From IMG/VR virus record IMGVR_UViG_3300050821_002957, positions 207,192 to 271,191 of that record: a DNA stretch of 64,000 bases; one strand, written 5' to 3'. Under the pieces are notes generated by a model that was not told the origin of the DNA, searched no databases, and saw only the letters and a program-made list of their open reading frames with translations. The position numbers and the translations under genes are program-made. This DNA is from a virus. Shown piece by piece: positions 6,872-61,075 of this stretch (its first letter is position 1; each line of letters begins with the position of its first letter).

Positions 6872-6899
6872 ATCTTTATTTATCTGGACACAATAAGAA

Positions 6900-15016: not shown

Positions 15017-15188
15017 CCGCTGCAAAACAAATTCGCACAATCACACCGCCAACTCATGAAGAAATCGCAGTTCTTGCCTATGAACTGTGGGAAATTCGTG
15101 GTTGCCCGGAAGGGTCCTCTGAAGAGGATTGGTTCTCAGCCGAACGCCAGTTGACCGAAACTGCGTCGTAACCAAAACAAAGGAAATT

Positions 15189-16046: not shown

Positions 16047-16114
16047 ATTTCCAGACTTCCTAAATAGTATAGCCGACGCACGCCGAAACCCGTTAGAATA
16101 ACTTCCAATGGGGT

Positions 16115-16140
16115 CACGGCGAAGCCGTGCGCCGAAGGCG
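16115..16140. terminator. two adjacent GNA-loop hairpins (CACGGCgaaGCCGTG, CGCCgaaGGCG) in convergent intergenic region
   Basis: read directly; no U-tract, so may be RNA-stability hairpins rather than a terminator. Confidence 0.3.
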
Positions 16141-16702
16141 CAAGCGGTTGACACTTTTGGATATCGTTATTCTACTGGTGGAACCTCGATTTGATCTTTG
16201 TGGATGAGTGTAGGGAAGCTCAGATGTGGGAACTGGACGGCGATTGCGTTCGATGCCATCCGATTTTGAATTCCCGGCCAGACGTTCTGAACTCGTTCAT
16301 CCATCGCATCCAACGTCTCAAGTACAGTCCCCTTAGGAACAAAGTGACCGGCAATGTTGCAGCCAAACTTGAGAACAACAGTCTTCATTTTTAAAATCCA
16401 TCGACAAACACTGCTTGGATCTGCTGCCAGGAAAGCTCAGTCCATCTCCCTTCTTCTTCAATCCACATCCGTACATTTTCAAATCCCTCGTTGAATACTA
16501 CCGTTCTGTATTCTTCGGCGTGGCTGAAAGTAACGTCTGGGCGAGATGGCAATCGGAGCTTGTAGCGCAACATCGAGACTATTTACACGCTCATGCAATT
16601 CTTTTGGAACCTGAACTGTGATGTCAGATAGGATTATATCCAATCTTGCAATTATTTCGGATCTCGTCGGAACAGGATATTGCTGATTGACGTAAGTAAC
16701 AC

Positions 16703-18502: not shown

Positions 18503-19086
18503 CGTTCTATACCATCACAACCATTCGTATGTGTGTCACCGTGGGTTGAACCGCACGCACATGTCTTTAGTCTCTTGTTGTTTTGTCCCCTTCCATCCTT
18601 CCATTCTATCCCAAAAGGACTCTCTTCCCAAGCTGGCTGATGCTGCTTCACTAGGCGTTCGTATTCCTTGATGGGCAAGTAGACGCCAATAGGAGTTTTC
18701 TCTCGTCCTGACACCAGCAGCGTCGGACCCTTCCCCGCCCACTTCTTGAACTTCTCGACACTCTGCGCTGAGATGTGTTTCAGTTCCGACATTAAAGCTG
18801 TTTTCATTGCTTTCTCTTTTCTTAAGCCATTCAGTTTCGACATTATTATTGGAAATGATTCTTCGTATGCCATCAATAAAAAAGACGGCTGTGAACGTAC
18901 CATCTTCAAAGTAGTCGATGCCGTATTCAGTACAACAATAATCGGCGTAATATCCGATAGGTACAACCTCTTTACGTCCTCTGTCCAAATTGGATCTTTA
19001 TGAGCACAGAATGTCTCATAGACACGCCGGTCATTGATTACGCAAGACTCGTTAACACCGTTGTACGTTATCCAAGTGTCTGTCAT
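18499..19086 (-). CDS. hypothetical protein
   Basis: 195-aa ORF. Confidence 0.45.
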   Translation of the reverse strand: MTDTWITYNGVNESCVINDRRVYETFCAHKDPIWTEDVKRLYLSDITPIIVVLNTASTTLKMVRSQPSFLLMAYEESFPIIMSKLNGLRKEKAMKTALMSELKHISAQSVEKFKKWAGKGPTLLVSGREKTPIGVYLPIKEYERLVKQHQPAWEESPFGIEWKDGRGQNNKRLKTCACGSTHGDTHTNGCDGIER

Positions 19087-19937
19087 AACGTCGAGATGTC
19101 ATGTTCGGCAACCGCTTGATGCAATTCGTCTACGTTGATAACCGGAGGCGTCTGAATTGCCAGATCAGAAACTAGGGTCGCTCTTTTGCTGTCGGCGACG
19201 AGTTTTTTCATTTCTGCCTTGGCCTTTTCAATGGCTGCTTCTGGAATCTCTTCGGCAACGTCACCAAATTCGTCATTGGTCCATTTACTGTCGTTCGATA
19301 TCGGAGTCCCATTGACATCGACCAGTACCCATTCGGCGTGACCTTCTTCTGTTTCGATGCCGACATCGGTGCCCATGACAAACCATTCGATGCTGCTGGT
19401 GATCTCTTCCATCATCTTGACAACTTGCTTGATGGTGTTGATCATGTCTACATTGTCATCATCTGCGGTGGACCATGCACTGATCGAAACTGGTTCACGA
19501 TTGGGAATGTTGACAGTGACCTTGCCGTCCTCTTCGATGACGACCTTTACCTTTTCGATAGGGGTGTCTTCCATTTCGACACAAAAGTCGCAGGTACATT
19601 TTTCTTCTTCGTCAACCTGCTGTTGCTCGGCTTGGACAAAACTGCCGGGATCGATTCCTACGTCAAAATTTTCGTTTTGCTGCTCGCTCATAACTTTTTG
19701 CTCCTTCGCATGTGCTGCCTCACAACGACAGCAACAGAATGAGTTTTCCATCCGAACCTCTGCACACCGCTTACAATAACGAACGTCTGTACAACAGGTA
19801 TTCCCATCATTGTTTGGCGTCTTCAAAATTTGACAGACTGGACAGCTATCGTCACCACTACACAAGATGTAAGGCAAACCGTTCCTTTCCACGTCTTCTT
19901 TCCACTCGTCAAGTTCTAGTTCGCTTTCAAACCACAA
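19083..19937 (-). CDS. acidic protein with N-terminal multi-Cys Zn-finger cluster
   Basis: 284-aa ORF. Confidence 0.45.
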   Translation of the reverse strand: MWFESELELDEWKEDVERNGLPYILCSGDDSCPVCQILKTPNNDGNTCCTDVRYCKRCAEVRMENSFCCCRCEAAHAKEQKVMSEQQNENFDVGIDPGSFVQAEQQQVDEEEKCTCDFCVEMEDTPIEKVKVVIEEDGKVTVNIPNREPVSISAWSTADDDNVDMINTIKQVVKMMEEITSSIEWFVMGTDVGIETEEGHAEWVLVDVNGTPISNDSKWTNDEFGDVAEEIPEAAIEKAKAEMKKLVADSKRATLVSDLAIQTPPVINVDELHQAVAEHDISTL

Positions 19938-20259
19938 TCCGTCATAATTTGCGATATGAAAAATGACGCTCAGATTGCCTCCGCACCCTTTGGGACTTCC
20001 TTGACGACGGTAAATTTCAATGCGTTTCGTGGGACCTCGGCGATCACGTCACAAATGCGCTCATAGGCAAACTCCTGACTATCCGCCTTCACGTACAGTG
20101 TTGCCTTCTGTCCCTCGACTTTGTAGATTGCCATTTTTCAATTGTACCAGAATGTGTGTCGGAACTTCTACTGTCACTTCGACCAACGGAGGCTCGCCAA
20201 AAATACTTCGGAGTAACTCTTCTTTCCATCGCCATTGTAGCTCATCGAATAACTGCCTC

Positions 20260-20526
20260 TTAGTAGGTCGGGCGTCCATCAATTAACCAAATGACGTAAG
20301 GAATCACGAAAGTCCACATGAAGACTGCCATTGCACCAAAAACAAAACCGCCAGATTGAAAGGCGTATTCGATCATAATGCACGCCATAATGACAGCCAT
20401 TGCAATGTGACCTTCATAGCGTTTCTTTGTGTCGAAGAAATTTTTCCAAATTGAAATAATGTTCATTATAATGCTCCAATGTCCTCGCCGGGTTCTTCCA
20501 TGTGCTCTCGCATGAAACCGTTCCAA
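20260..20526 (-). CDS. small membrane protein
   Basis: 88 aa, 2 TM. Confidence 0.35.
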   Translation of the reverse strand: MERFHARAHGRTRRGHWSIIMNIISIWKNFFDTKKRYEGHIAMAVIMACIMIEYAFQSGGFVFGAMAVFMWTFVIPYVIWLIDGRPTY

Positions 20527-20678
20527 TATTGGATGTCGGCCCCACGAGTCGCACAGGATTCACAACCTGCCAGATGTGCCTTTACTGCTTCTTGTTCTCC
20601 GAGAGTCAGACGGCAGTTATGAAAGTCTAGCAACGTCTCGTCGCTCATGTGTTCATATGCTTGTTGTGCTGTGTTCAT
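20466..20678 (-). CDS. ZAS-like (anti-sigma-factor-type) zinc-finger protein
   Basis: 70 aa; H-x3-C-x2-C (AHLAGCESC) preceded by His, as in ChrR/RsrA N-domains. Confidence 0.35.
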   Translation of the reverse strand: MNTAQQAYEHMSDETLLDFHNCRLTLGEQEAVKAHLAGCESCATRGADIQYWNGFMREHMEEPGEDIGAL

Positions 20679-21301
20679 GATTTTTGTCTCAACTGAATTA
20701 TACGATAGTACGGTGCATCTTTAAAAAGACCGTGGATTGAATCAGGTTTTGACGGAGTGTACGGTGAAGATGCTCCATGTCGATTCTTGATTATGTATCG
20801 TTTACCGTCACAGATTGCAACGATAACTTCCGCTTTGCACAGATCGTTAAAATTTCTGATGTTTATGGGGACGTTGTAGTTTGTTGCTTCACAATTAGGC
20901 CAATGACGACCTAGGTTGAGATCGGAATGACAACTAGGACAAATGTCATCTTGAAGTCGCCGATCTAAAATTTTTTGATAAAAACGTTGAAAATGTGAAA
21001 TTAACCAAGCGGAATGAGGTTTGGGTCGCAAATATTCGATCCAATACGAGTACCATTCATCCCATGTTTCTTCTAAAAAGAATGCCCTATTGTCGAATTG
21101 TTCTCTAGCAATTCTTAGGACTTTTATCGCACCAACTACATCCCAGTCTTTTTCATCTGCGGTCGTCTTCTCCGTAGATGTCGTCAAGGGAATCAAAATC
21201 GCCATTTGGTTGTCCCCATCGACGCCAGGGATGACTGACCGGCAATTCGTCTTCAGTTTTTCTTGCTGCGTCTGTTGGATCTTGATATTGCTGTTCGTCA
21301 C
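20675..21301 (-). CDS. hypothetical protein
   Basis: 208-aa ORF. Confidence 0.45.
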   Translation of the reverse strand: MTNSNIKIQQTQQEKLKTNCRSVIPGVDGDNQMAILIPLTTSTEKTTADEKDWDVVGAIKVLRIAREQFDNRAFFLEETWDEWYSYWIEYLRPKPHSAWLISHFQRFYQKILDRRLQDDICPSCHSDLNLGRHWPNCEATNYNVPINIRNFNDLCKAEVIVAICDGKRYIIKNRHGASSPYTPSKPDSIHGLFKDAPYYRIIQLRQKS

Positions 21302-21639
21302 TACTGTTCTCCCTGATCATGTTTTTCTTCCTTTTTTAAAACGAAAATCTTACAGGAACAATTCTTGCAGGTAGGCTTGTGATCCTGTCGGGTATGTCCA
21401 CATGTACAGGGATCGTACTTGGTGCAAGAAACATACTGCATTACTTTTTCTTTGGTGTTTTTGCCGGGGTGCCGTATTCTTTCGTCCAGACTACAAGACC
21501 GTCTTGAAAGGTTTTGTATGGGCCAAGCGTATTGTGGTTTGCCGCTACGAAAAACCAGCCGGTTGGATATTGCGTAGCAGTCCAGATTCCATTTTGGAAG
21601 GAGCCGGATTTGAGGGTCTCCCAGCCTGCCGGATTCGAT

Positions 21640-21900
21640 TTATTGTTGTTGCTGGGCATCTTCTTCATCTTGGGTTTTGCTGAAGAGACTCTCTAATTCG
21701 GCTACCTCTTCGACTTGCTTCATTAGTTCGTCAAGTTCTGGAACATCCAATCCCAAAGCATAGACTAAGTTCTGATTCATTTGGTAAATCTGAACCAGAG
21801 CTTGCATCTGATACGGGTTCAAACCCATATGCTGCAATGAAAGAATGAAACAGCGCTGGGCTTTCAAGGAATCTGCAATATATGATTTCGGATTTTGCAT
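21640..21900 (-). CDS. hypothetical protein
   Basis: ATG 21898-21900 with AGGAAG SD. Confidence 0.4.
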   Translation of the reverse strand: MQNPKSYIADSLKAQRCFILSLQHMGLNPYQMQALVQIYQMNQNLVYALGLDVPELDELMKQVEEVAELESLFSKTQDEEDAQQQQ

Positions 21901-23188
21901 TACTTCCTGCACAACATGATCTCCTTATATTTACACGAATTGTCAATCTGTCAAGCGAGGGATCGACCTGACTTTGTACAACAGGGTTTGTTGGGTCTTT
22001 CGGCGTCGATGAGCGAAGCGAAAATGACCGACCCTCCCCTTTCCTTTACCGAAGCTCGCAGCCCGTCCGAGACGGCCTGCGCTTTCGTCCAGGTTTCTTC
22101 GACCAAGGTCAGTAGCCTCGGTTCGTTTTGCGGAGTTAATTCTACTATGATGATGCGATACGACATTTGAAATAGTGAATAATGTGCTCGGGGACCAAAA
22201 CGTTTATTACTACCGGAACAGGATCATAACCATCAGAAGGGACTCTACCATAGACCGTTCGGAACATGTCCATGATGTCTTTCAAATATCGTCTGGCAAG
22301 CTCTTCTCGCTCGTCATCGTCCATTTCGTCGAATTCAAAACTCAAAACATCAAACTCCGCTCGGCCTCTTCTTTCGCCTGTGCTTTCGTCTTCCAAAAAG
22401 TTCTGGGAAGGTTCTCGACTACACAACACCACGTACCATCATACGAATAGACTTTGGCAACTTCTTTTCCGAGACCATCGTAAAGTCTTTCCGTGTTCGA
22501 CCACCAATGAGCTTTTTCCCAACGTGCCGCAGCGAGAGTCGTCATTGTTTCATCCAAACCATTCGACGAAGATGTAGTTTGCTTCGTCGAGACCATATTT
22601 ATCTTGTAAGCCATACGATTCACTCTCTTCTCCGATACAGAACGTCTCCAGTTCTTCGTCAGACAGTTGGGCAAGCTGGGCTTCGGCAATCGCAAGTTCG
22701 TCCGGGCGCTCGGCAGTCTCGAATGAATGCTTCTGAGGCTCGTGGCGATTGATTGCGCCGCTGTCAAGTTGAATCATCAACCAGCCTTTGTACAACAGCG
22801 GATAGGTTTCTTTACTAATTGTCGTCGTCTTCATTTTGTCTTTCCGCTTTGGCGCAGCCTTTCAATTCGCCTTGATCCACCCAATGCTGCAATTCTTGGA
22901 TCAGCCACTTGACCTGTTCGAGATCAAGATGCATTCGAGTCGTAAGCAGAACGTCGTCAGAAATTGGAAAGGGAATCCAGCCGGTCGTCTCTGTAGTCTT
23001 GACGCCCAATCTCGCTGCATCGTGCGCCATGATCTGAGGATTTGCATCACGAGGACCAAGCCAGACTGCCGAAGTACCCGGCTGGTCGAAATCGGCAAGA
23101 CTCGACTGCTGTAATTCGCAGAGAACGCCGTAACGATCACTGAATTCAATTACATGAAATCCCCGACAAGTCTTCGTTCGTTTTATTT

Positions 23189-23401
23189 TCATTTTTTTCC
23201 TCGACGTAATTCCAGGCCAACTAGAAACAGAGACAGAAGGAGAAAGAAGATAGCAGAGAGGATGATACCCGACACTTCGTCAATTTCCATAGTTGTACCA
23301 ACACTGTGTACCAACACTGTATACCATACTGTCGAGAAGGAAGAGATCCAACCGTCTGACCTATGTTCCCAAAGGGCATCTTTTTTACTACCCTTTGGCA
23401 T
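23189..23401 (-). CDS. small membrane protein
   Basis: 70 aa, TM at C-term. Confidence 0.4.
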   Translation of the reverse strand: MPKGSKKDALWEHRSDGWISSFSTVWYTVLVHSVGTTMEIDEVSGIILSAIFFLLLSLFLVGLELRRGKK

Positions 23402-23422
23402 ATAATCTTTGAAAGTGTCAAT

Positions 23423-23459
23423 AGCATATCACTAGGATTATTCCCTGTCAATAGGTATC
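23423..23459 (-). promoter_or_regulatory. minus-strand promoter GATACCT-A-TTGACA / 17 nt / extended -10 TGaTATGCT
   Basis: RC read directly; second TTGACA copy at 23416-23421. Confidence 0.45.
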
Positions 23460-23465
23460 AAAAAA

Positions 23466-23723
23466 TTAATTTATTTCTTCAGCCGTCTGAGAGAAATCGA
23501 CCTGAATATCTAACCGGAGATCGGGAAGTCGGTCGTAAAGCTCCAGTTCCTTTTGAATGATCGGCTCAAAGTCTTCATAATTCAGCGTTCTAATCGAAGC
23601 GACTACGAGAACCTTCGCCGGAATGACTTTTTCTGGGATGAATTCGATTGTTGCCCCAAGAACGTTCGGAAGTGCAGCAAATTCCGCTCGAAGTGCTTCA
23701 AGTTCTTCTGAATTTGGAGTCAT
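23466..23723 (-). CDS. hypothetical protein
   Basis: 85-aa ORF. Confidence 0.4.
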   Translation of the reverse strand: MTPNSEELEALRAEFAALPNVLGATIEFIPEKVIPAKVLVVASIRTLNYEDFEPIIQKELELYDRLPDLRLDIQVDFSQTAEEIN

Positions 23724-24521
23724 TTATTCGTCCGGGGATTGAGAATCGACAAATAAATGAGGCCAGCAGCGCCCAAATCGATAATTCCACTGATTCCGTT
23801 GCCTCTGAAGAATTGTCCGAGACCCAGAAATACCAGAATTGCGAAGAAAATCCAACAAAAAACTTGTATTATTCTCATAAATCAGTCCAGTGAGACGATT
23901 CTTTCGTTCGCTCCGACACAACCTCGGTGAATCCGTCCGTCCCGGCCCATGTAGCGGACCATCGTCACCGCATGAGGCCGATGAGACCTGTTTGATTCCT
24001 TCTTTTTCATGAACCGCTTCAATGCCTTTTTCAAAATGTTCTTCATGGAACTCTCCGTATTCATGATAACACAAACTTATTCGTGGATTGTGATCTTTAA
24101 AATCCTGTGCGGCGGAATCCATGTCATCCCGTCGTCAATCCAGACACCGACCGTAGAAATAACGGCATTGACTTTCTCTCGTGTCGCTGCAATCTCAGCC
24201 GTTTTTACTTCATTCGAGTTGTTCATATACCACAGAATCATTTCTTTTCCTTATAATCGCCCCAAGGACGCTTCTTATTTCTGTTGATCAAGATTCCCAG
24301 ACCTATCGGAACCGCAAACATGAAAAGGACCCAGACGGTGGCAGGCAGGTAGATCATATAGTCGTCCCTACAAACCCCTCACCAGTCCACCGCTGCCATA
24401 GTTCAACATCGTTTCGTCTTTCCGCAAAGGACGTTTCTGTCCTGCATCCACAACGACGCATTTGCCACAGGTCGAGCAGTGGAGCTTGGTTCCATCGAGG
24501 AGGTCTTTAGCTTCCATTTCG

Positions 24522-24941
24522 TTAATTCTTCATCAGATGATCGTGAATCTTGGTAAAGACTTCCTGAACTTTTTTGACAAAGAACTCGTCCAGTGCAATG
24601 ATGTCGGCAGTTACGATCTGACCCTGCGTCGTAGACAGGAAATTGAAGAGGGCGGCTGCTGCGTCAAATCCTGCGGTTACCGGATCAAGAGCGACCGGAG
24701 CCAGAGATGCGACATTCAAATTTGGAATCACTTCTTTGATCGGCTCTCCTGCAATGACAGCAGCGGCTCCAGTGATGACTGCTTCATGCGGATCGACCAG
24801 GGTGTCAGTGAGAGCTTTCGCAACACCTTCTGGACTGATGTCGTGAACTCGGTCAGGAACACAGAGAGGCTCGGCGGCTTTTTCCAAAGTCTTCAGAACA
24901 TTGTCAGAAATCTTGGATGCTTGATTAGTTTGATATTTCAT
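24522..24941 (-). CDS. hypothetical protein
   Basis: 139-aa ORF. Confidence 0.45.
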   Translation of the reverse strand: MKYQTNQASKISDNVLKTLEKAAEPLCVPDRVHDISPEGVAKALTDTLVDPHEAVITGAAAVIAGEPIKEVIPNLNVASLAPVALDPVTAGFDAAAALFNFLSTTQGQIVTADIIALDEFFVKKVQEVFTKIHDHLMKN

Positions 24942-24964
24942 ATACTACACTCATATAGCATCGA

Positions 24965-25186
24965 TCAATAAGGCTTCTCAAATACGACGGAACATCTGGG
25001 GCAACGCATGTCTTTGTAATTCAGTTCGACATTGCAGGACGGACAGAAATAGGCTCCAGAAATACTCTGCATGTCCGGGATGAAGCGACAGACAGGACAA
25101 TAGCCGCCTTGCAATCGTTCTTTACAGCCGTCGTCGTGGAAAGTTACAAAATTAGCTTTCATTTTTTCATCTTCCTTTTTTGTCAT
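24965..25186 (-). CDS. Zn-ribbon protein (4 CxxC pairs)
   Basis: 73-aa ORF. Confidence 0.4.
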   Translation of the reverse strand: MTKKEDEKMKANFVTFHDDGCKERLQGGYCPVCRFIPDMQSISGAYFCPSCNVELNYKDMRCPRCSVVFEKPY

Positions 25187-25413
25187 GGCGACTGTCGTAG
25201 TGACTCAGACCCGGCTTTCGCTTGCTTCCCAGATGTTGGACGTGCTCGGGTTTGGATCGCTTCAGAATGTCCGGGAACATCTTCAGAATCGCTGCGGCCT
25301 TCTGTTGCTGTTCTTCTGTCAGAACAAACTTCTCACGGCGAGTTGTCTGGGCGGCTTGTTCGTACAAATCGTCCATGTATGCCTTGGCTTTGGCTTCTTC
25401 GGCAATGAATTCT

Positions 25414-25854
25414 TTAAACGTCAGCACTGATTTTTTTGTTCCGTAAAAACAGAGGGTTTCCTAAGGCTTTGGAATTGTGATAGGTGCGAAGATAATCTTG
25501 TATTTCGCTCAGATGCTTTTTTGGAGCCTCCCAATCAAGCCGCTTCATCGTATAGTAAGAGAAGGAGAACCTTTCGCCTATCAAAGATTCTCGAAAGACC
25601 ATTACCTTTTCCCAATTGTCAGGTCCATAATAGCCATCGAAGTAGTTTGTAAGATACTCGATCTCTTCTTCGGTCAAAGGCAATTCTTGTTCTTGTTCAT
25701 GCTTGAGAAGAATAGGCAAAGAAAAAGAAGAAGAGGAGTCCCCGTCAGAAGAAAGTTTCTTATTGATGTGTTGTTCGAGTTGGACGAGAATTTGTGGTGT
25801 GATCATTGGTAGTCTTGTTCTGTGATGGTATGGCGGATCGTCCCAGTGGCACAT
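25414..25854 (-). CDS. hypothetical protein
   Basis: 146-aa ORF. Confidence 0.4.
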   Translation of the reverse strand: MCHWDDPPYHHRTRLPMITPQILVQLEQHINKKLSSDGDSSSSFSLPILLKHEQEQELPLTEEEIEYLTNYFDGYYGPDNWEKVMVFRESLIGERFSFSYYTMKRLDWEAPKKHLSEIQDYLRTYHNSKALGNPLFLRNKKISADV

Positions 25855-26339
25855 TGACTTGATACTGCGATTGTGATGGTGTCCCCAGGCTTGAGCATGT
25901 GCAGCATCGACTTGTACGAATGCATGGGAACAGGTTCAAATTGCTGGCCGGTACGTTCCAGGATCTTTGCAATTTCGTAACAGGTAGGTGCGCCGCCGTG
26001 TGACAAAATATCTTGAATCTCTGTCACTGGGATGTCGTTGAGCTTCTCTTTCCAATGACAGTTAATCCTAGTTCCACAGGTCGCCAGCCGCTTCTGCTCT
26101 TTTGCGTCGAAGGGAGAGTCGGGTCCTAGTTGACAATCTTCGCATTGCCGGTTTGCTTTTTTGTTCATGGGGTGGGTAGCTCGGAAATTGCGATCCAGGA
26201 ATAAGTCAAGAATGCCGTCAGGCCGATCACTGCGAAACACTGAATGAAATATGTGATCGGATCGAAGACATATAGATGCTGAAAGAAGATGATATCGAAG
26301 TGATAGACAGCCTGCGAATGAAACCCAGGCACGACCCAA
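25803..26339 (-). CDS. hypothetical protein
   Basis: 178-aa ORF. Confidence 0.4.
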   Translation of the reverse strand: MGRAWVSFAGCLSLRYHLLSASICLRSDHIFHSVFRSDRPDGILDLFLDRNFRATHPMNKKANRQCEDCQLGPDSPFDAKEQKRLATCGTRINCHWKEKLNDIPVTEIQDILSHGGAPTCYEIAKILERTGQQFEPVPMHSYKSMLHMLKPGDTITIAVSSQCATGTIRHTITEQDYQ

Positions 26340-26575
26340 TCCCGCCAGTCATACTTGTCAACTTGTCCTAGTCCAGTCAGCCAGACAAGCACAAAGGCCG
26401 TCCAGTGCGAGAAACAGTAGGGACAAGAAAACAAACGAATTCCCTTGGTCCACTCCCGGAATTTCTCGAACATGACCGACCGAGTGACTGTGATTGTCAG
26501 GGCCATGTTCGCCAGCGATATCACCAGTAGAGCTTTGAGTCCCATTGTGTTATGCCGGAACGAAGACACCTTCAT
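26165..26575 (-). CDS. membrane protein
   Basis: 136 aa, 3-4 TM. Confidence 0.4.
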   Translation of the reverse strand: MKVSSFRHNTMGLKALLVISLANMALTITVTRSVMFEKFREWTKGIRLFSCPYCFSHWTAFVLVWLTGLGQVDKYDWRDWVVPGFHSQAVYHFDIIFFQHLYVFDPITYFIQCFAVIGLTAFLTYSWIAISELPTP

Positions 26576-27158
26576 TGGCGATGATGTTCTTCATGATTGC
26601 CCGGAGACGATCTGCCGCTGCGCCATACTTCTTTCCGAATGTGATGGCGGCTTGGCGAGATGATTCCCAGATTTCGATTTGCTTTTCGTTGACATGAGGA
26701 TCGAGGTTCCAGACATTGGACGGCTGGAAATATCCTCTTCCTCGCTCAAAGGCATTTTCGATCAGGTACATTTGATGCATACTGAAGACAGCTTTGAGGC
26801 GGCGTACCATATCGTCGGTTTCGATCATGTTGTTGTATTGTCCGTCCAGGCCGGAAAACTTGAACTTGTTTTCGAGAGTGACGACCGACATCAGACAGGC
26901 TCCCAGGCCACAGACTTCACAATATGGCTGGAGTTTCTTGGCGGTAGCCTTTGAGTCTTTCTTGTTTGCTTCGATGATCTTTTCGACTTCGGTGTCTTCG
27001 TACTTCCCGTCTTTGTACTTGGTTTTGGGAGAGTACATTTTGACGAAGGCTTTCCCGGTTCGGATGGCTTTATATCTTTTGATCGACTTCAGCACATCTT
27101 TGGCGACGGCGATTGCACGTTCTTGTTTTGGGGTCAAAGTTTCATTAGTAGTAGGCAT
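26550..27158 (-). CDS. hypothetical protein
   Basis: 202-aa ORF, first gene of long minus block. Confidence 0.5.
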   Translation of the reverse strand: MPTTNETLTPKQERAIAVAKDVLKSIKRYKAIRTGKAFVKMYSPKTKYKDGKYEDTEVEKIIEANKKDSKATAKKLQPYCEVCGLGACLMSVVTLENKFKFSGLDGQYNNMIETDDMVRRLKAVFSMHQMYLIENAFERGRGYFQPSNVWNLDPHVNEKQIEIWESSRQAAITFGKKYGAAADRLRAIMKNIIANEGVFVPA

Positions 27159-34168: not shown

Positions 34169-35056
34169 TCAATAGCGGTTATGATGATCGTATCTGTTTC
34201 TGGTGGCTTTTTGATACGCCTTAGCTACATCCGTACTAAATCCATGATCACGAGCAACAATGTGTTGAGAACCGTCTGGATGCTCAAAGACGCCTAAGTT
34301 TTTCTTCTGGTGATAGTCGTTCGGTGAGTGCCCAGTATTGCCGTGATAGTCCTGAAATTTCTGAACAAGTGGATGCTGATTCAGACGATGATGTTCTGCT
34401 TCTTGCTCAGACGTTCCTGAGTAATGTCTACCGTTGTTCTGGTCGTGGTTGTGGACCAAGGTATTGACAAACTGTTTGTGATTGATACCTTTTGGAAACT
34501 CTTTGTTCTTGGTCAGCTTTTGAAACTCTCCAGGCTTGATGTCTCGCACATGGCCGACGTGAGACCATTCATGTTTTTCGTGGTCATGATCAATCAATGG
34601 AGGAAAGATGCCGCTTTCTTTGTTTGAACTGTAATGATTTGATCCTTTCTCCGGTTCGTAGCGAAGAATACGATAGTTTCCGTTCACCCAATGATCGCCA
34701 CCTTCTGCGTGGTTTTGCATGGCACCCAGGCTCATTCCGTCGTGTTCTGAGGCTTTGTGATGCTTGTCGAGTGCGGCTCTGATGGCAACTTTTGTTCCAG
34801 AATGGATGTGTGCATCTTTGCCGTCAAGAACAATGTGATGCGGTGTGTCATGTTTCAAATAGGCTCTGGACGAACCTTTGGGCATGTTACCTTCGATGCC
34901 AGTCTTCTGTCCGCTGTTGGTCAATTGTTTGATCTTTTTTGCGAGCAGGCTTTGCTTTGGCGCATACGAATTTGAAGACGTAACAATCGACCGGAGTTCA
35001 GGATGAAGCTCTTCGACGATTACATTGTGGATGAAGTCTTTAAAATTGACCAGCAT
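34169..35056 (-). CDS. histidine-rich protein with CTS-like N-terminus (MLVNFKDFIHNVIVEE); candidate packaged internal protein
   Basis: 295 aa, about 14% His; CTAAATAC box 5 nt upstream of ATG. Confidence 0.5.
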   Translation of the reverse strand: MLVNFKDFIHNVIVEELHPELRSIVTSSNSYAPKQSLLAKKIKQLTNSGQKTGIEGNMPKGSSRAYLKHDTPHHIVLDGKDAHIHSGTKVAIRAALDKHHKASEHDGMSLGAMQNHAEGGDHWVNGNYRILRYEPEKGSNHYSSNKESGIFPPLIDHDHEKHEWSHVGHVRDIKPGEFQKLTKNKEFPKGINHKQFVNTLVHNHDQNNGRHYSGTSEQEAEHHRLNQHPLVQKFQDYHGNTGHSPNDYHQKKNLGVFEHPDGSQHIVARDHGFSTDVAKAYQKATRNRYDHHNRY

Positions 35057-35065
35057 GTCCAGTAT

Positions 35066-35320
35066 TTAGTCGAACAAACTGGCCTGATGAATCTTGGACA
35101 AATGCTTTTCTAAATTGGTGGGAGTCTTGCCGCCTTTCTTCTTCGCTGAGTGTGTCCATCCTGCGTCAGAGACGGTCGCTGTGTGGTCGAGACGAGGATG
35201 GGTATACTTGGTGACCCCGGACTCATTCGACGCCTTCTGATAGCCGTAATTGCGGAGCACAGCCTGGACTTTCTTGCTCGATTTGGACTCGGCGATCAGA
35301 AATTCGCTGAAGGATTGCAT
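35066..35320 (-). CDS. small basic protein with T4-IP-like N-terminus MQSFSEFLIAE
   Basis: 84 aa; compare T4 internal-protein CTS MKTYQEFIAE; CTAAATAC box 4 nt upstream. Confidence 0.5.
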   Translation of the reverse strand: MQSFSEFLIAESKSSKKVQAVLRNYGYQKASNESGVTKYTHPRLDHTATVSDAGWTHSAKKKGGKTPTNLEKHLSKIHQASLFD

Positions 35321-35348
35321 GACTGTATTTAGCTGTATAGATATCCAT

Positions 35349-35567
35349 ATGAAGATTACACATCAAACAGAATTCGACCTCTTCGTGGCGCTCCTGCCTA
35401 GGGTGGTTGCTCAGAATCCGATTACAGAGCCAGCCGAAGTCATGGCAAAGACACAAGAGCTTATGGAGAAAGCCATTGAACATCTGGAAGAGAAAGGCAT
35501 CGTTAAAGACAGCACGCCTAACAAAAAGTTGAGCATTCGTCCACCAAACCGTTACGCTGAACTGTAA
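35349..35567 (+). CDS. hypothetical protein (leaderless from TGtATAGAT -10)
   Basis: 72 aa from ATG 35349. Confidence 0.35.
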   Translation: MKITHQTEFDLFVALLPRVVAQNPITEPAEVMAKTQELMEKAIEHLEEKGIVKDSTPNKKLSIRPPNRYAEL

Positions 35568-35787: not shown

Positions 35788-35797
35788 TGAAATATTT

Positions 35798-36340
35798 ATG
35801 AGCTATTCGTACAAATTCAAAACCAACATCTATTATGACAAAATTGCAAAGGACTTGGCCGGAAGCGAGATTGGCGATGTCACGCAATTTCTGAACGAAC
35901 TTGCAGAGGCATTGAAAGCTCGCCATACGCCGGAAGAAGATCAGGTGATTGTGATGCTGCCTGAAGATGCATTCTTTGGAACACTGGCGTTAGGTATTCA
36001 GGATGCAATCACAAATGCCCAAGAGAAGGTCAAAGAGAACACTCGTATTGCCTTTGCCCAGCCGACACATGAACAAATTGAAGAGAAGATCAAAGAACTG
36101 CTTAACGGTGGTACTGATACATCGGTCGATATTCCATTTGATCCTGATTTGGTGGCGCTTCCTCTTGAAATGCGACGGGCTGAACAGATGAGTGGCATTA
36201 AGAGCAATCCAATTGAATGCCGATCTGATCTTTCAAGAGAAGAGCACATCAAACGAACCACCGATACGCTTCTTAGGAATACAGAAATAATGCTAGGCGA
36301 CAAACAATACAGAAAGCAAATGGGTGATCCTACCGTTTAG
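35798..36340 (+). CDS. hypothetical protein
   Basis: 180-aa ORF. Confidence 0.45.
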   Translation: MSYSYKFKTNIYYDKIAKDLAGSEIGDVTQFLNELAEALKARHTPEEDQVIVMLPEDAFFGTLALGIQDAITNAQEKVKENTRIAFAQPTHEQIEEKIKELLNGGTDTSVDIPFDPDLVALPLEMRRAEQMSGIKSNPIECRSDLSREEHIKRTTDTLLRNTEIMLGDKQYRKQMGDPTV

Positions 36341-38120: not shown

Positions 38121-38128
38121 GCCAGTAT

Positions 38129-38427
38129 TTAGCTGGCTTTGACTCCTACTTCCTTCAACTTACGAGGACGGCCTGCTTTGCGTCCCTTTACACGGTCGTA
38201 CACACTGCGCTTGTGACTGTATCTGCGGCTACGAAAGATTTTATAGGCACGCTGAGTCAAAGTTTCGTCTTCTTTCATTTTAACACTCTCGATTGGAGTA
38301 GCGAAAATATTGACCGGGCCGCAGCCTGTAAATTCGTATCCACAGTGTTCGCAGCCGAGACACGGTTCATTCACACAAACACCCGGCGAAAGTTTCTTTG
38401 GTTTATCGTTTGAAAGTTGAAATGCCA
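38129..38427 (-). CDS. Zn-finger protein with C-terminal AT-hook (GRKAGRPRK)
   Basis: 99 aa from ATG 38425-38427. Confidence 0.4.
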
Positions 38428-38436
38428 TGACGGTAT

Positions 38437-38976
38437 CTATGTCACATGTAAATGCATGTGCTGTTGCAAATCCTTTGGTGTCTGACCAGCGAAGCGAATC
38501 ATACCCGAGATGTAATGAGTCCAGCCATCTGGTGTGATTTCGATTTGATGATCGTACATTCCAGGCCGGTCGGAAACGAACATCAAACTTTGAGGACGGC
38601 GTTCGATTCTCCATCCAAATTTGCGAAGCACGGTCATGTACTGATCGGAGACAGGTTTCGGGGCAGGTTGTGCCGCTGCTCCTGGAGATGGCTGTGGAAT
38701 GGGCGCTGGATCGGGCTGTAACGTCGCCAGATCGATTCCATGCTTCTCGGCAAGGCGTTCGGCCTGCTGACGTGCATTGATGCCTTCCGCAGCCGTTCCA
38801 GGCCGGGAAGCCAACGCCATCAAATTTCTGATTGTGGCAACGTGATCTCGTTCTGGACCTGATTTGATCTCTTCGTAATAGAGATGAATCACATTGTCGC
38901 CGATGCCTACACCATGAATGCCATTTTCACCCAGGAACTCATCTCGAATTTTTGCTTTGGTTTCAAGAAGTGTCAT
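38437..38976 (-). CDS. hypothetical protein with Pro-rich linker
   Basis: start MTLLETKAK. Confidence 0.4.
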   Translation of the reverse strand: MTLLETKAKIRDEFLGENGIHGVGIGDNVIHLYYEEIKSGPERDHVATIRNLMALASRPGTAAEGINARQQAERLAEKHGIDLATLQPDPAPIPQPSPGAAAQPAPKPVSDQYMTVLRKFGWRIERRPQSLMFVSDRPGMYDHQIEITPDGWTHYISGMIRFAGQTPKDLQQHMHLHVT

Positions 38977-39191: not shown

Positions 39192-39521
39192 TCACTCATT
39201 GGTTGTGGCGGCTCCTACCATTACATAGCGATTCAGCTTTTCTGCGGTTGCCATTACCTTCTCAAGGCTGACTCGACCGGGCGAGCAAACCAATTCAGTC
39301 CCACGTCCACCTTCTCGGCGAGGTAACCAATAGTTGCCGCCATCCTTTGTGTCTCTGAATTTTTCCATCAATGTGGCGATGTATTCTTCTGCTTTGACCT
39401 TGGGAAGATTGCCCACGTCGATGTAGAAGATTCTTGATTGTGTGCTGCTTTCCTCAATTTGAAATGCCATCTTGAGCGTTTCGAGGCGCAGGAGTTGTTC
39501 GTGTTGCATGTAGTCACTCAT
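39192..39521 (-). CDS. hypothetical protein
   Basis: 109-aa ORF. Confidence 0.35.
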   Translation of the reverse strand: MSDYMQHEQLLRLETLKMAFQIEESSTQSRIFYIDVGNLPKVKAEEYIATLMEKFRDTKDGGNYWLPRREGGRGTELVCSPGRVSLEKVMATAEKLNRYVMVGAATTNE

Positions 39522-42992: not shown

Positions 42993-43115
42993 TTTTTATC
43001 CCCTCGGAAAGAATCTATCGACGACCCACGCCAATAGACCTAAATAAATCGACCACAAACCCCACAAAAATTCCATACGTTTATTATAACCTGGGAATGT
43101 GGTTTTGACAACTTT

Positions 43116-44313: not shown

Positions 44314-44389
44314 TGGTAGACCCGGTAGGATTCGCACCTACGACCTCATCGATGTCAACGATGCGCTCTAACTACTGAGCTACGGGTCT
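44314..44389 (-). tRNA. tRNA-Val (anticodon GAC), CCA encoded
   Basis: manual cloverleaf: acceptor AGACCCG/CGGGTCT, D stem GCTC/GAGC, anticodon stem CATCG/CGATG loop TTGACAT, T stem GTAGG/CCTAC; D-loop lacks GG, T-loop TGCGAAT. Confidence 0.8.
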
Positions 44390-47262: not shown

Positions 47263-47352
47263 ATGCCTATTTAGACGGATCTTCCAAGTAAATATTTGAG
47301 TGGTGCTATTGAAGCAAGTGGTTGTTTTGAATCACTTTTCATTTACCATGAT

Positions 47353-48108
47353 TCATGATCCATTGCAATTTTCACAGTTGACCGCTGGAATAGGATACTC
47401 GCCGCAGACGCACAAACGCTCTCTACGCTGTTCAAATGCTTCCTGAAGGTTCGGAGTGCCTGGAAGCGCCGCAAGCTCTTGGAACGCTTCTCTTACGTTT
47501 TTTATCACGTCCGAATTTTGTGTCCCTTCTTGAATGTGCTTGTGCAGCAGTTCGGTCGGCTGATAGTTGTGCAAAAAATGCCACAGTTCCATTGCACCCG
47601 ACATCAGAGCCAGATCACGATAGAAATGTGGAGCCTGCTTGAAACGGTTCGCCTTCTTGCTTCCCTTTTCGTCGGGATCGCCACCAAGCGCACGATAAGC
47701 TGTGTCGTAGTCGGCCATGACACCATCAAGATCGACATAGACAACACCAGTCGTTTTGGACCAGTCGATTTCTTTTAATTTACGGATGCAGCTTTCGGCG
47801 TCTTTGTAGATGATTGCGATTCCCCCGGCATTGATCCACTCAGAGCAATTCTTGGTGTTGTCGTCGATCAGCACATCACCCTTTTTGCAGAGCTTTTGTT
47901 TGTCCTGAGGATAGGCGACGACATGAACCTTCGGCCCTGTCATGTGCAGATGCAGGGCGACCCACTCGATTTTGTCATCGTAGCTGGTCTTTAGGTAATT
48001 CGATTTTGCGCTTAAGATTCTGATGTCTAGCATACCAGTATCTATCGTAGCATACATAGCACTGTCAGCACAACATACACCAATGAAGAAACGTGATGCC
48101 ATCCTCAA
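47353..48108 (-). CDS. circularly permuted deoxyribonucleotidase-like HAD paralog with C-terminal Zn finger
   Basis: N-half aligns to residues ~70-160 of 42384-42992 (KGDVLIDD...AGGIAIIY), C-half to residues ~1-70 (VYVDLDGVMADYD...FYRDL). Confidence 0.5.
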   Translation of the reverse strand: MRMASRFFIGVCCADSAMYATIDTGMLDIRILSAKSNYLKTSYDDKIEWVALHLHMTGPKVHVVAYPQDKQKLCKKGDVLIDDNTKNCSEWINAGGIAIIYKDAESCIRKLKEIDWSKTTGVVYVDLDGVMADYDTAYRALGGDPDEKGSKKANRFKQAPHFYRDLALMSGAMELWHFLHNYQPTELLHKHIQEGTQNSDVIKNVREAFQELAALPGTPNLQEAFEQRRERLCVCGEYPIPAVNCENCNGS

Positions 48109-48261: not shown

Positions 48262-48852
48262 CTAGTTGTTTTTGTAGCTGCGATTGAAGACGCTTACAAT
48301 TTCTTCGGTGAATGAAAGCCTGAACGACGGCGGCTGGACGGCTGTATAATCCCATCCCATAGCAACGGCATAACTCAGTGAGATGTGCGGAACGAACCTA
48401 TGATACACCATGTCTACACCGTGCTCAACTGCAAAATTCCATTGCCGGTCCAGTTCGTTGCATTCAAAAAATAGAGCGAAGGCAGGTCCAATGGTTCCAA
48501 GAATGTAAGTTTCTGGGGCGATGTGAATTTGGCGACGGTCTGGAATGTATTCAGGAGGGAGTTGATTGCAGGCACAGACAACACTACAGTGGAGCTTTTC
48601 TTTTGCAAGAGGACTCGGAATGTGTTGATCCGAAAGCCATTCGTACAAAAGGTTGCGTGATTGAGTTTCTAGCGCCCGAAGTGAATAAACAGCCTCTTCG
48701 TGGTTTGCCTTTCGGTCTGATGCAACTTGGACCAGCACTTGATTATTTAGCTTTCTGTGAAGAGAGTTGCAGGCGGTGGAATGAACTGGAAATGTGGGCC
48801 TTTGTAATGAAAGCCGTGGACGTAACTCATGGTTTGGCAGGAATTGTACCAT
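48262..48852 (-). CDS. 2H phosphoesterase superfamily protein (LigT / Acb1-like fold)
   Basis: two H-x-S-x motifs (HCSV, HISL) about 75 aa apart. Confidence 0.45.
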   Translation of the reverse strand: MVQFLPNHELRPRLSLQRPTFPVHSTACNSLHRKLNNQVLVQVASDRKANHEEAVYSLRALETQSRNLLYEWLSDQHIPSPLAKEKLHCSVVCACNQLPPEYIPDRRQIHIAPETYILGTIGPAFALFFECNELDRQWNFAVEHGVDMVYHRFVPHISLSYAVAMGWDYTAVQPPSFRLSFTEEIVSVFNRSYKNN

Positions 48853-50496: not shown

Positions 50497-50835
50497 TTAT
50501 CGTTCATGTTGTGCCTTGATTTCGCTGAGGGGCGTCGGTTTGAACCACAGATCACGCTCGATCTTGAGGCCCAGCGGGAGACGAACGCTTTCGAGTTCGT
50601 GAAGATTGAAATAGCCGAGTTCGTTATCGAAGCCGACGACATAACCAAAAAACAGCCACGTCTTGATTTCCTTGCCGTTTTCGTCTTCGATGACTTCTTC
50701 CTGGCCTTCGGTGGCGTACCAAGTCCAGCTACCGACCGGCGAGAAAAATTTGACGTGAACGGTGGGATTGGGGTTCTTTTCTTGAGAGTACAATTTCGGG
50801 AGCCGATTCTTGATCTCTGCTGTCATCATCTTCAT
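50497..50835 (-). CDS. DUF2958-family protein
   Basis: FFSPVGSWTWYATEG...LFFGYVVGFDNELGYFNLHELE. Confidence 0.5.
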   Translation of the reverse strand: MKMMTAEIKNRLPKLYSQEKNPNPTVHVKFFSPVGSWTWYATEGQEEVIEDENGKEIKTWLFFGYVVGFDNELGYFNLHELESVRLPLGLKIERDLWFKPTPLSEIKAQHER

Positions 50836-50841
50836 AATCTA

Positions 50842-50881
50842 ATCCTAACAGGTTCGAGGGCGAATGTCAATAGACGTATCT
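50842..50881 (-). promoter_or_regulatory. promoter AGATACGTCT-A-TTGACA / 17 nt / extended -10 TGtTAGGAT, leaderless (ATG 6 nt after -10)
   Basis: RC read directly. Confidence 0.45.
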
Positions 50882-51794: not shown

Positions 51795-52358
51795 TTATTT
51801 AGTGGCCTCTTCCAAATTTAAATGGGCCTTCACTTCGTACTTGTCGTAAAAATATGGAGTGTGGTAGATCGGTTTTCGTTCGTTGAATGCGGCTAGAATT
51901 TTTTTGCGTTCGATCTTGAAGATAGCATCTGGAACGAACGCATATTCTTTGCGAATCAGTTCGGTGTTCGCAGCAAAATGATCGACGGCCAGTGAAGTGA
52001 GATCAATGTCGCAAATCAATTTTTCGTCGTTGGTTTCTGGTTTGAATCTATCAATATGCTTGGTCACCAGGATATAACGTTTGACACGTTGTGCGAATGC
52101 TTCGTCGTATCCTTCTCGCAAGGCAGCTTCATAAGCAGAATCCGCCGACCGTTCTTCGTTATCAGTGAATTCGCCTTCGTAGATGTAGTCATGAAACCAC
52201 CATGCAAATCGAAATGCTTCTTCGTCGTCAACATGCACCCCGGCCTGAAGTGCCTCACGGAGTTCTTTGAAACCGTCAGCAATGTGATCTAGATTGTGAA
52301 AAAAGCGATTCGGACGCCTGTATCCGTAATACAGTTGAACAAGGGTTTGTTGATTCAT
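51795..52358 (-). CDS. HD-domain metal-dependent phosphohydrolase (COG4339-like)
   Basis: FHNLDH ... WWFHDYIY. Confidence 0.45.
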   Translation of the reverse strand: MNQQTLVQLYYGYRRPNRFFHNLDHIADGFKELREALQAGVHVDDEEAFRFAWWFHDYIYEGEFTDNEERSADSAYEAALREGYDEAFAQRVKRYILVTKHIDRFKPETNDEKLICDIDLTSLAVDHFAANTELIRKEYAFVPDAIFKIERKKILAAFNERKPIYHTPYFYDKYEVKAHLNLEEATK

Positions 52359-54135: not shown

Positions 54136-54157
54136 ATTTAGCGTTATAGATACCCTT

Positions 54158-59913: not shown

Positions 59914-59925
59914 CTAAATACCGAC

Positions 59926-60474
59926 ATGATCCCGTACTTTGAAAAATTTCCGACCATTGGCTACGACATCAACGGTTCGGGTGAAAAACAAATCGCTATT
60001 GATATCCTAGAGCGCATCAAGATTAGGGACGTTCTCAAACAGAATTGGCTCATCTTCTACAAATACGCAGTGAAGGACGGCGAGACTCCAGAAATGCTCG
60101 CCAGCAAATTGTACGGTGATCCTCGTTACCATTGGATAATTTTGTTGGCAAATAACATCGTAGATCCGTATTATGATTGGCCGATGAGCAACGACAATCT
60201 GATTGCAACCATCCGCAAAAAGTACGGGACGCCTCAGATGGATGGCCTAATCTACGCTTACCAAAACATCTACCATTACATTGATTCTTACGGAAATGTG
60301 ATAGATTTAGAGACGTACACCAGTCTTCCGGCAAATCAAAGAACTGCCGTCACCGTATACGATTGGGAAGTTTCGCAAAATGAAGCAAAGCGGGAAATTA
60401 CATTGCTCGATCCTTCTTACGTCGAACAGATTGACACGGAAGCAGATAAGATCCTAGCACAGATACTCGTGTAA
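59926..60474 (+). CDS. hypothetical protein; CTAAATAC box 4 nt upstream
   Basis: start MIPYFEKFPTIGYD. Confidence 0.45.
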   Translation: MIPYFEKFPTIGYDINGSGEKQIAIDILERIKIRDVLKQNWLIFYKYAVKDGETPEMLASKLYGDPRYHWIILLANNIVDPYYDWPMSNDNLIATIRKKYGTPQMDGLIYAYQNIYHYIDSYGNVIDLETYTSLPANQRTAVTVYDWEVSQNEAKREITLLDPSYVEQIDTEADKILAQILV

Positions 60475-61075
60475 ATATATCTACCTTTATGACCCCTAGT
60501 GGTACTCGAATGGTTCCGGCGCTTGTGGGCGAACCGGAAATAACCTTAACCCCAGCCCATCTTTCTCTTGACGATGTTTTGACCGTCGCCGGAAAGTATG
60601 AAACCGATCCTCTTTGCCTTAGCCTTGGACCACTGAAAGGTTCGACCAACAGACATGTCTTTGCTGCGCTTGTGGCGGCGCTGGACACGTCGGGAACCGT
60701 TCAGGCACTATGGACATCCGAACCGATGTTCAGTAGCGCAGAAGCCGCCCAGGAACATGCAGAAGATGTCATTGGAACAGAACTGTGGCCGTTGCTGTTT
60801 TGTGGTGCCGAATCGAGCCTTTGACAAATCCTGATTTTCGGCTACCATGACCACATGAATCAAGACACATTCGATCAATTTGTAATTGAAATGGTCAATC
60901 TGGACGAGCCGACGTACAAAGAAATTTTAAACATCATTGAACAAGGGCGTCATAACATCGAAAAGGCACAAATCATTAGTGTGCAGAATCAATACATGGT
61001 CCGACGATTGAAAGAACTAGCTCAAGAAGAAGTTGCTGTCGAAGAGCTTTCGAGAATGTTTGACCTACCAACGTC

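Follow-up and report, generated by a model that had tools for sequence, protein, structure and literature searches.

Late promoters of T4-like phages and the box described here

In phage T4, the late promoter element TATAAATA spans positions -13 to -6 relative to the transcription start (PMC1524935), and in the T4-like Aeromonas phage Aeh1 the corresponding consensus is CTAAATA, starting at -12 (Nolan et al., 2006, PMC1524935). Here we consider a closely similar element, hereafter the box (consensus (C/A/G)TA(A/g/t)ATA, often CTAAATAC), which recurs immediately before start codons in a 64,000-nucleotide (nt) stretch of viral DNA (IMG/VR record IMGVR_UViG_3300050821_002957, positions 207,192 to 271,191; this whole stretch is referred to as the window). 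It seems likely to us, from the sequence evidence set out below, that the boxes are T4-type late promoters of the Aeh1-like CTAAATA form, placed so close to start codons that they predict leaderless mRNAs.

The window corresponds to bases 12708-76707 of Logan contig SRR7093796_86073 (178,905 bp), the overlaps having been checked, and was analysed together with both flanks as a piece of 83.5 kb (contig 3003-86500). Comparisons were made with three relatives of the same clade (L059, L061 and L063; three 20-kb loci, 62 kb, gp53 64-76% identical) and with three ordinary T4-like contigs as outgroups (L071-L073).

Abundance of the box and its distance from start codons

The octamer CTAAATAC is present in five exact copies in the window against 0.64 expected, a count reached in one of 100 shuffles:

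2536-2543, minus strand, exact octamer
35062-35069, minus strand, exact octamer
35325-35332, minus strand, exact octamer
38125-38132, minus strand, exact octamer
59914-59921, plus strand, exact octamer

For the heptamer CTAAATA, 12 copies were counted where 3.0 were expected, and none of 100 shuffles reached 12. Nine of the 12 copies (75%) are followed, 5-8 nt past the box, by an ATG or GTG at the head of a reading frame of 60 codons or more, and the distances peak sharply at 5 nt; eight of these are separate gene starts and one is an in-frame GTG within an Acb1-like gene. When 104 permutations of the same composition were put through the same spacing test, only 40 of 919 copies (4.4%) were so placed, the top-scoring permutations being shifted copies of the box. 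The remaining copies of CTAAATA comprise one lying 17 nt before the probable ATG of a GP88-family gene and two (16060 and 43040) with no open reading frame (ORF) behind them. Measured the other way, from 1166 candidate starts in the 83.5 kb, exact TAAATA was found 11 times at offset 5 and 0-4 times at each other offset from 0 to 24. The words enriched in the 22 nt upstream of 145 gene calls fell into two classes, one of them Shine-Dalgarno-like (AGGAA, GAGGA) and the other, TAAATA/CTAAAT, about 20-fold over expectation.

One-mismatch variants are also found at offset 5, both in the contig piece (TAGATA four times, TATATA and TAAATG twice each) and across the clade (TAGATA five times, TATATA three times). 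The base preceding the hexamer is C in 15 cases, A in 11, G in three and never T; the window contains CTAAATA 12 times, ATAAATA five times and GTAAATA nine times, and TTAAATA not once against 5.5 expected.

The first-pass annotation of the window had listed boxes upstream of several start codons; all of its coordinates are correct, as is its spacing of 4-7 nt, which was counted from the octamer. It had proposed a motif search, and the box is indeed enriched ahead of start codons, both in the heptamer test and in the offset-5 peak over 83.5 kb. Its variant GACTATAAAC, ahead of 37542, lies 13 nt upstream and is accompanied by a GGAAGAG Shine-Dalgarno sequence; it falls outside the testable pattern and stays unverified.

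Read on the minus strand, cagCTAAATACagtcATG contains the box at 35325-35332 with its ATG at 35320, and cgaCTAAATACtggacATG the box at 35062-35069 with its ATG at 35056. The sites in the window are listed here, beginning with this region (aa, amino acids; distances run from the end of the box to the start codon):

35326..35332, minus strand, CTAAATA (octamer 35325-35332), 5 nt to ATG 35320 of an 84-aa ORF (35066-35320); no -35
35063..35069, minus strand, CTAAATA, 6 nt to ATG 35056 of the His-rich 295-aa gene (34169-35056)
35336..35343, plus strand, variant TATAGATA, 5 nt to ATG 35349 of a 72-aa ORF (35349-35567); back-to-back with the 35326 box
35793..35799, minus strand, ATAAATA, 5 nt to ATG 35787; 71 aa, DUF4031
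38126..38132, minus strand, CTAAATA, 5 nt to ATG 38120; 192 aa, weak methyltransferase match; the upstream gene ends at the TAA of the box
38434..38440, minus strand, variant ATAGATA, 5 nt to ATG 38428; 99 aa
39527..39533, minus strand, variant ATATATA, a weaker candidate, 5 nt to ATG 39521; 109 aa
2537..2543, minus strand, CTAAATA, 8 nt to ATG 2528; 86 aa; the upstream gene ends at the TAA of the box
6877..6883, minus strand, ATAAATA, 5 nt to GTG 6871; 171 aa; directly downstream of a terminator-like hairpin (about 6890-6915)
16580..16586, minus strand, GTAAATA, a weak candidate, 6 nt to ATG 16573; 60 aa
44405..44411, minus strand, GTAAATA, 15 nt before tRNA-Val (44314-44389), a non-coding gene
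47268..47274, minus strand, CTAAATA, 5 nt to ATG 47262; 125 aa; within a 90-nt intergenic gap
48039..48045, minus strand, variant ATAGATA, 5 nt to ATG 48033; NT5C-like nucleotidase, 226 aa from that start
48744..48750, minus strand, CTAAATA within the Acb1-like gene (48262-48852), 5 nt to in-frame GTG 48738
51796..51802, minus strand, CTAAATA, 7 nt to ATG 51788; 199 aa
54135..54141, minus strand, CTAAATA, 17 nt to the probable ATG 54117 of the GP88-family gene, 511 aa; a GAGGG Shine-Dalgarno sequence lies between, making a short leader
54145..54152, plus strand, variant TATAGATA, 5 nt to GTG 54158; 118 aa; back-to-back with the GP88 box
59914..59920, plus strand, CTAAATA (octamer to 59921), 5 nt to ATG 59926; gp53 homologue
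60471..60477, plus strand, GTAAATA overlapping the gp53 stop codon, 11 nt to ATG 60489; 111 aa
61696..61702, minus strand, variant CTAAATG, 5 nt to ATG 61690; endonuclease VII-like gene, 204 aa
61940..61946, plus strand, CTAAATA, 8 nt to ATG 61955; 94 aa; the L059 orthologue has CTAAATA and 5 nt
16060..16066, plus strand, orphan CTAAATA, intergenic, no ORF behind
43040..43046, plus strand, orphan CTAAATA, intergenic, no ORF behind

The TAA within the box at 35063 terminates the 84-aa ORF, and at 51796 the gene upstream ends in the downstream TAA of CTAAATAA. The copy inside the Acb1-like gene could be an internal late promoter giving a 158-aa isoform, or a chance copy. A CTAAATC variant at 8742-8748 was tried as a box and moved to the sigma70 class, because a good TTGACA -35 precedes it. 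Among the products listed, the 109-aa ORF at 39192-39521 (minus strand; 105 aa in the public call) has a precomputed Pfam match to Portal_T4 (gp20) but is far below portal-protein size, and may be a fragment or domain relic.

Evidence for a T4-type late promoter

The box matches TATAAATA or the documented variants NATAAATA and CTAAATA. There is no -35 at the box sites, where the best match to TTGACA 16-18 nt upstream mostly has 3-5 mismatches. TAAATA does not fit the sigma70 -10 rule (TAnnnT) in either register, and the TG extension is absent; a separate class of promoters, TTGACA-N16-18-TAnnnT, coexists in the same DNA.

What kind of phage carries these elements? The gene at 59926-60474 encodes a 182-aa homologue of the T4 baseplate-wedge protein gp53 (Pfam PF11246, 1.7e-12; phrog_232, 4e-46), and the left flank of the contig encodes T4 gp2, a tail-tube-like protein, T4_baseplate and T4_Y16D. 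Judged by these core structural and replication genes, the window phage is a member of the T4 superfamily; the 83.5 kb contained no capsid, terminase or polymerase gene. Its gp53 and gp2 are 35-42% identical to the versions of pelagiphages, cyanophages, rhizobiophages and Stenotrophomonas phages, and when 20 kb of the window was compared by megablast with 50,697 phage records, no match was found at the DNA level. An identical gp53 is encoded on a contig of 405,631 bp, and relatives at 74% and 64% identity lie on 370- and 400-kb contigs. The low identity, the lack of DNA matches and the sizes of these contigs place the phage, of roughly 400 kb, on a deep and uncultured branch of the T4 superfamily whose genomes are very large. 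Cultured T4-like phages range up to about 250 kb, and set against that limit the clade would be unusually large for the superfamily. Scanning IMG/VR with gp53 gave distant relatives only (at most 45% identity); these were rejected as a footprinting set, gp53 there lying inside an operon with a Shine-Dalgarno sequence.

Homologues of T4 late genes are found behind boxes: gp53, the gp2 operon (in the order TnsA-like/gp2/tail-tube-like/baseplate, headed by CTAAATAcgtatGTG at L004 14530) and, behind the variant CTAAATG, the endonuclease VII-like gene. A box probably also heads a tRNA gene. Four pairs of boxes are back-to-back and divergent (window 35326/35336, window 54135/54145, L004 14524/14530 and L061 18727/18751), and boxes are also placed after terminator-like hairpins (window 6877; L002 2650). 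We infer that the box is read by a gp55-type sigma factor and that its timing is late: host RNA polymerase carrying such a phage sigma would recognize the box and would not need a -35.

Comparison with relatives is consistent with this. At gp53, where the window has CTAAATAccgacATG and L059 has CTAAATAgtcgcATG, the box and its 5-nt spacing are kept and the spacer sequence is changed. In the GP88 family, the arrangement of box, 17 nt and ATG is kept in L059, with GAGGG as the Shine-Dalgarno sequence in the window and GAGGA in L059. The gene after gp53 has GTAAATA at 11 nt in the window, 5 nt in L059 and 12 nt in L061. An hsp20-like gene just outside the window is preceded by tgtATAAATA about 80 nt upstream in the window phage, L059 and L063, and by CTAAATA in L061:

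L002 1991-2078 (about 8 kb to the right of the window on its own contig), region with the box of the hsp20-like gene
L059 19631, box of the hsp20-like gene
L063 18391, box of the hsp20-like gene
L061 19846, box of the hsp20-like gene

The leader of this gene, starting ...tgagtagga..., is common to three clade phages, that of L061 being different; the conserved leader may be a regulated 5' untranslated region, such as an RNA thermometer. Rfam searches of the window and L002 found tRNA only, and nothing to account for this leader or for the orphan boxes.

The His-rich 295-aa protein has 297 homologues at E <= 1e-10, the best 120 of the 297 being 53-74% identical. In the outgroups L071-L073, tgTATAAATA or ggATAAATA stands 25-30 nt before its gene or operon, with an evident Shine-Dalgarno sequence at the L071 and L072 loci, and GP88 of L072 has ATAAATA 36 nt upstream. 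One outgroup contig that shares the His-rich gene encodes a clear gp55 (hmmsearch 2.7e-47) beside gp47/gp46, and another that bears it encodes a gp33-type coactivator and DsbA. A confident structural model of the His-rich protein (pLDDT 84) gave weak fold matches, kinase-like only; these point faintly to a protein-kinase-like fold, and the protein is not an obvious structural one.

The idea of a T4 late promoter, put forward in the first-pass annotation, thus gains support from identity to the Aeh1 consensus, the T4-like character of the phage, the lack of a -35, the late-gene targets, conservation in the clade and the boxes of outgroup orthologues. Its further suggestion, that the genes form a virion class, holds for gp53 and the gp2/tail-tube/baseplate operon, but not for several enzyme genes (endonuclease VII-like, thioredoxin-fold, nucleotidase and methyltransferase-like) and, probably, a tRNA.

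A predicted leaderless layout

In T4 numbering, a CTAAATA element occupies -12 to -6, and transcription would start 6 nt after its last A. As the box ends at -6 and the spacer is of 5 nt, +1 falls on the first base of the start codon and a leaderless mRNA is predicted; the start codon would usually lie exactly at the predicted +1, or else 1-3 nt further on. The leaderless transcripts that the first-pass annotation had envisaged therefore fit T4 numbering exactly. The boxes lie 5 nt (the mode) to 8 nt before the start, with no Shine-Dalgarno sequence between; the spacers of 5-8 nt contain no G-run and are too short for a Shine-Dalgarno sequence at its usual distance. Most box-driven genes would accordingly give leaderless or nearly leaderless mRNAs without a Shine-Dalgarno sequence, and a minority would keep a leader, either short and with a Shine-Dalgarno sequence (the GP88-family gene) or long (the hsp20-like gene). 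Start sites at the ATG, and leaderless translation, are what the sequence predicts.

This close spacing is not special to box genes, a point missed by the first-pass annotation: sigma70-like promoters abut start codons in the same way. In the 83.5 kb, 27 sigma70-like promoters are followed by an ORF within 40 nt, and in 15 of them the -10 hexamer lies 5-9 nt (mode 6) ahead of an ATG or GTG. Start-abutting sigma70-like promoters are associated with the following positions:

window 715-1134, minus strand
window 3039-3503, minus strand
window 9273-9917, plus strand
window 26550-27158, minus strand
window 50497-50835, minus strand
window 50880-51155, minus strand
window 56602-57645, minus strand
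window 60855-61079, plus strand
L002 7291
L002 9763

As a sigma70 hexamer ends at -7, a 6-nt spacer again puts +1 on the start codon, and the one-base difference between the two modes (5 for the box, 6 for sigma70) is what the two numbering schemes predict. Presumed early genes, those with sigma70-like promoters, appear from this to be laid out as leaderless too. A generic scan for sigma70 promoters and terminators showed no excess over shuffles and was uninformative.

A pyrimidine at -1 followed by a purine at +1 is the usual preference at transcription start sites. C or T immediately precedes the start codon at 22 of 24 promoter-adjacent starts and at 22 of 45 Shine-Dalgarno-led starts (Fisher p = 4.7e-4); the promoter-adjacent starts, in our own assignment of classes, therefore carry the signature of start sites.

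The layout inside and outside the clade

Among NTAAATA boxes with an ORF within 45 nt, the numbers with the ORF at 3-8 nt were as follows:

window phage, 18/24
clade relatives, 9/17
outgroups L071-L073, 2/15

The abutting layout is characteristic of the window-phage clade. It is also met elsewhere: at IMG/VR T4-like loci, ATAAATA, exactly 5 nt and ATG precede gp2, the DNA end protector gene, in many lineages (L007-L053, e.g. L029 960-1460), and in 733 kb around gp55 genes (GTDB and JGI; L076-L177) offset 5 stands out for ATAAATA with 15 occurrences, against at most five at neighbouring offsets. Some genes other than gp2 have this arrangement as well. Outside the clade this is a minority layout: of 154 boxes followed by an ORF within 60 nt, 15 lie at exactly 5 nt and 24 at 3-8 nt. 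The abutting boxes of IMG/VR are concentrated on gp2, and have a pyrimidine at -1 there too. A late promoter abutting the start codon is thus recurrent in environmental T4-like phages, and apparently undescribed; the literature searched contained no description of leaderless late transcripts in T4-like phages or cyanophages. A spacing fixed at 5 nt across different hosts is explained by a phage-encoded sigma, and so supports the predicted start site. The same rule outside the clade limits the novelty of the window phage, in which it is the dominance of the layout, and its sharing by early promoters, that is special.

More speculatively, we suggest that the clade of about 370-405 kb has moved most of its promoter-proximal genes, whether with sigma70-type early or gp55-type late promoters, onto leaderless mRNAs, and that the rule 'late box, 5 nt, ATG' applies also to gp2 and others in uncultured T4-like phages; this combined proposal is a tentative one, rather more open to being wrong than right. 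If it were true, leaderless expression via a T4-type late sigma would be a widespread and so far undescribed layer of gene control in T4-like phages, and the leaderless mode might conceivably set low levels of translation or exploit translation that survives late in infection.

Weighing the alternatives

Several points count against late promoters that feed leaderless mRNAs. None of gp55, gp33 and gp45, homologues of which the first-pass annotation had proposed to seek, was found in 83.5 of the 178.9 kb of the contig, or in the 62 kb of relatives; the search for gp55 used a profile built from T4, PX29, Mosig, S-8S53, Cr30 and Moby, with local hmmsearch on the fetched clade DNA. Scans for gp55 in GTDB genomes and JGI metagenomes, judged by the clade signature (G+C content about 46-47%, zero CGCG), revealed no clade member. 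Genes that are not classical late genes (thioredoxin-fold, nucleotidase, methyltransferase-like, GIY-YIG) also stand behind boxes, and the exact boxes are more secure than the variants (TAGATA, TATATA, TAAATG, GTAAATA). With a spacer of 3, 7 or 8 nt, transcription would start inside the ATG or leave a leader of 2-3 nt, so flexible choice of start site is needed, and some leaderless candidates begin with GTG, which calls for tolerance in start choice or in translation. The gene calls are home-made, as are the assignments to promoter and Shine-Dalgarno classes behind the pyrimidine test. A search of a set of 5.8 billion proteins with the gp55 profile was dominated by marine phages and gave no link to the window contig.

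Could the boxes be promoters that are neither gp55-dependent nor late? They would then be -35-independent elements read by the primary sigma of the host or by another phage sigma, with constitutive, middle or other timing. The failure to locate gp55 within 83.5 kb would suit this idea, as would targets atypical of late genes (here including the tRNA), and one window protein matches zf-HC2, a domain found in anti-sigma factors, so that other sigma biology may exist. Against it stand the misfit of TAAATA to TAnnnT in both registers without a TG extension, the presence of a distinct TTGACA/TAnnnT class in the same DNA, the identity of the heptamer to the Aeh1 late consensus (PMC1524935), the T4 late-gene homologues among the targets, and the use of TATAAATA by orthologues in T4-like phages that do encode gp55. 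We regard this alternative as unlikely.

It is also conceivable that the box works in translation instead of transcription, as an A/U-rich substitute for the Shine-Dalgarno sequence or in stop-restart coupling on a polycistronic mRNA. This was taken seriously because the box occupies the exact Shine-Dalgarno position; moreover, in four cases (2537, 35063, 38126 and CTAAATAA at 51796) the upstream gene terminates inside the box, and as other window genes use AGGA/GAGG Shine-Dalgarno sequences, the box could serve as a ribosome-binding site of a second kind. Such a role fits poorly with the GP88 gene and an 87-92-aa gene before a ClpB-like ATPase, in which the box is 14-17 nt upstream with a normal Shine-Dalgarno sequence between (the GP88 spacing being conserved in L059), with the box 15 nt before tRNA-Val, or with the conserved hsp20 box about 80 nt from its gene. 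Boxes are also met where divergent units begin, a position that calls for a promoter, and after terminator-like hairpins; sigma70-like promoters with a clear -35 are found at the same distance from the ATG; and a 5-nt rule for ATAAATA in unrelated T4-like phages suits a phage sigma better than the ribosomes of many hosts. A purely translational role is therefore quite improbable.

Finally, chance, or the carriage of non-independent copies by duplicated paralogous His-rich genes, is scarcely credible and effectively refuted by the permutation, flank and offset analyses: short A/T-rich words are common in intergenic DNA, and five octamers were reached in one of 100 shuffles, but the spacing test was passed by 75% of box copies and by only 4.4% of composition-matched heptamers, the sequences flanking the boxes are mutually unrelated, the downstream proteins come from different families and boxes are kept across diverged relatives.

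Consequences for annotation, and other features of the DNA

If the boxes are T4-type late promoters, box-driven genes can provisionally be assigned to the late class, and a very large T4-like phage, uncultured and with about 90% of its genes unannotated, gains a working map of its promoters. Gene callers that expect a Shine-Dalgarno sequence start box-driven genes too far upstream or miss them, a systematic error that the box exposes. The public call of L059 gp53 (10001-10579) is 10 codons too long; the thioredoxin-fold gene (L002 127-591) was called as 154 aa where the box predicts 108 aa, as is likely; the 84-aa ORF at 35066-35320 is absent from the public call; and the longest GP88 ORF (window 52582-54135, 517 aa) starts inside the box, the likely start giving 511 aa. 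The longest ORF in the 64-kb window is of 517 aa.

Should the predicted start sites prove correct, T4-type late transcription would be able to supply mRNAs for leaderless translation, which lies outside the T4 textbook picture, and the fixed 5-nt spacing across unrelated T4-like phages would provide an independent estimate, from sequence only, of the position at which the gp55 holoenzyme starts.

Two further features deserve mention. The first is an extreme avoidance of palindromes: CGCG is absent from the 83.5 kb, against about 237 expected from composition, and 30 of the 64 palindromic hexamers, each expected 12-23 times, are wholly absent from the same DNA. The absent hexamers take in nearly all the G+C-rich ones, examples being AAGCTT, CGATCG, CTCGAG, CTGCAG, GGATCC, GTCGAC and TTCGAA. 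CGCG is absent from L059, L061 and L063 too, and in the outgroup L072 it was observed seven times against 42 expected. This looks like restriction-site avoidance on an unusual scale. The second is the region 10000-26500 of the window, whose 45 small ORFs have Pfam matches to PTH2 peptidyl-tRNA hydrolase (1e-35), ceramidase (7e-11) and zf-HC2 (4e-5), matches that are known for the ORF set and not tied to individual ORFs. Look-up of a 305-aa ORF at 15129-16046 found no record.

Comparison with known systems

Leaderless genes are well known in bacteria, among them lambda cI transcribed from PRM and many genes of Actinobacteria and Deinococcus-Thermus (general knowledge and Lomsadze, 2018). The genes described here resemble them in having a -10-type element 5-8 nt before the start, no Shine-Dalgarno sequence and a pyrimidine before a purine start. 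They differ in that the element is assigned to a phage late sigma, and not to a housekeeping sigma.

The T4 late promoter is read by gp55 together with gp33 and the gp45 clamp. With T4, the window phage shares an A/T-rich 8-mer with the common core TAAATA, without a -35, at the head of baseplate and head genes, and it shares back-to-back divergent late promoters (as at T4 genes 4/53). In T4, however, the bases at -13/-12 are T-A, whereas the window phage has C, A or G at -12; and T4 leaves 26-28 nt and a GGAG Shine-Dalgarno sequence before the ATG (genes 4/53), whereas the window phage usually leaves 5 nt and has no such sequence.

The likeness to Aeh1 is closer, the heptamer being identical even to the C at -12 that separates Aeh1 from other T4-like phages (PMC1524935), and in both cases elements lacking a -35 precede late-gene orthologues in a large T4-like genome. 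The window phage is nevertheless unrelated to Aeh1 at the DNA level (megablast, 50,697 records), and its box lies mostly 5 nt from the start codon, a geometry not mentioned in the account of Aeh1 (PMC1524935; an Aeh1-type genome was not scanned). The promoter type would thus be a known one, and it is the apparently leaderless layout that has been little described.

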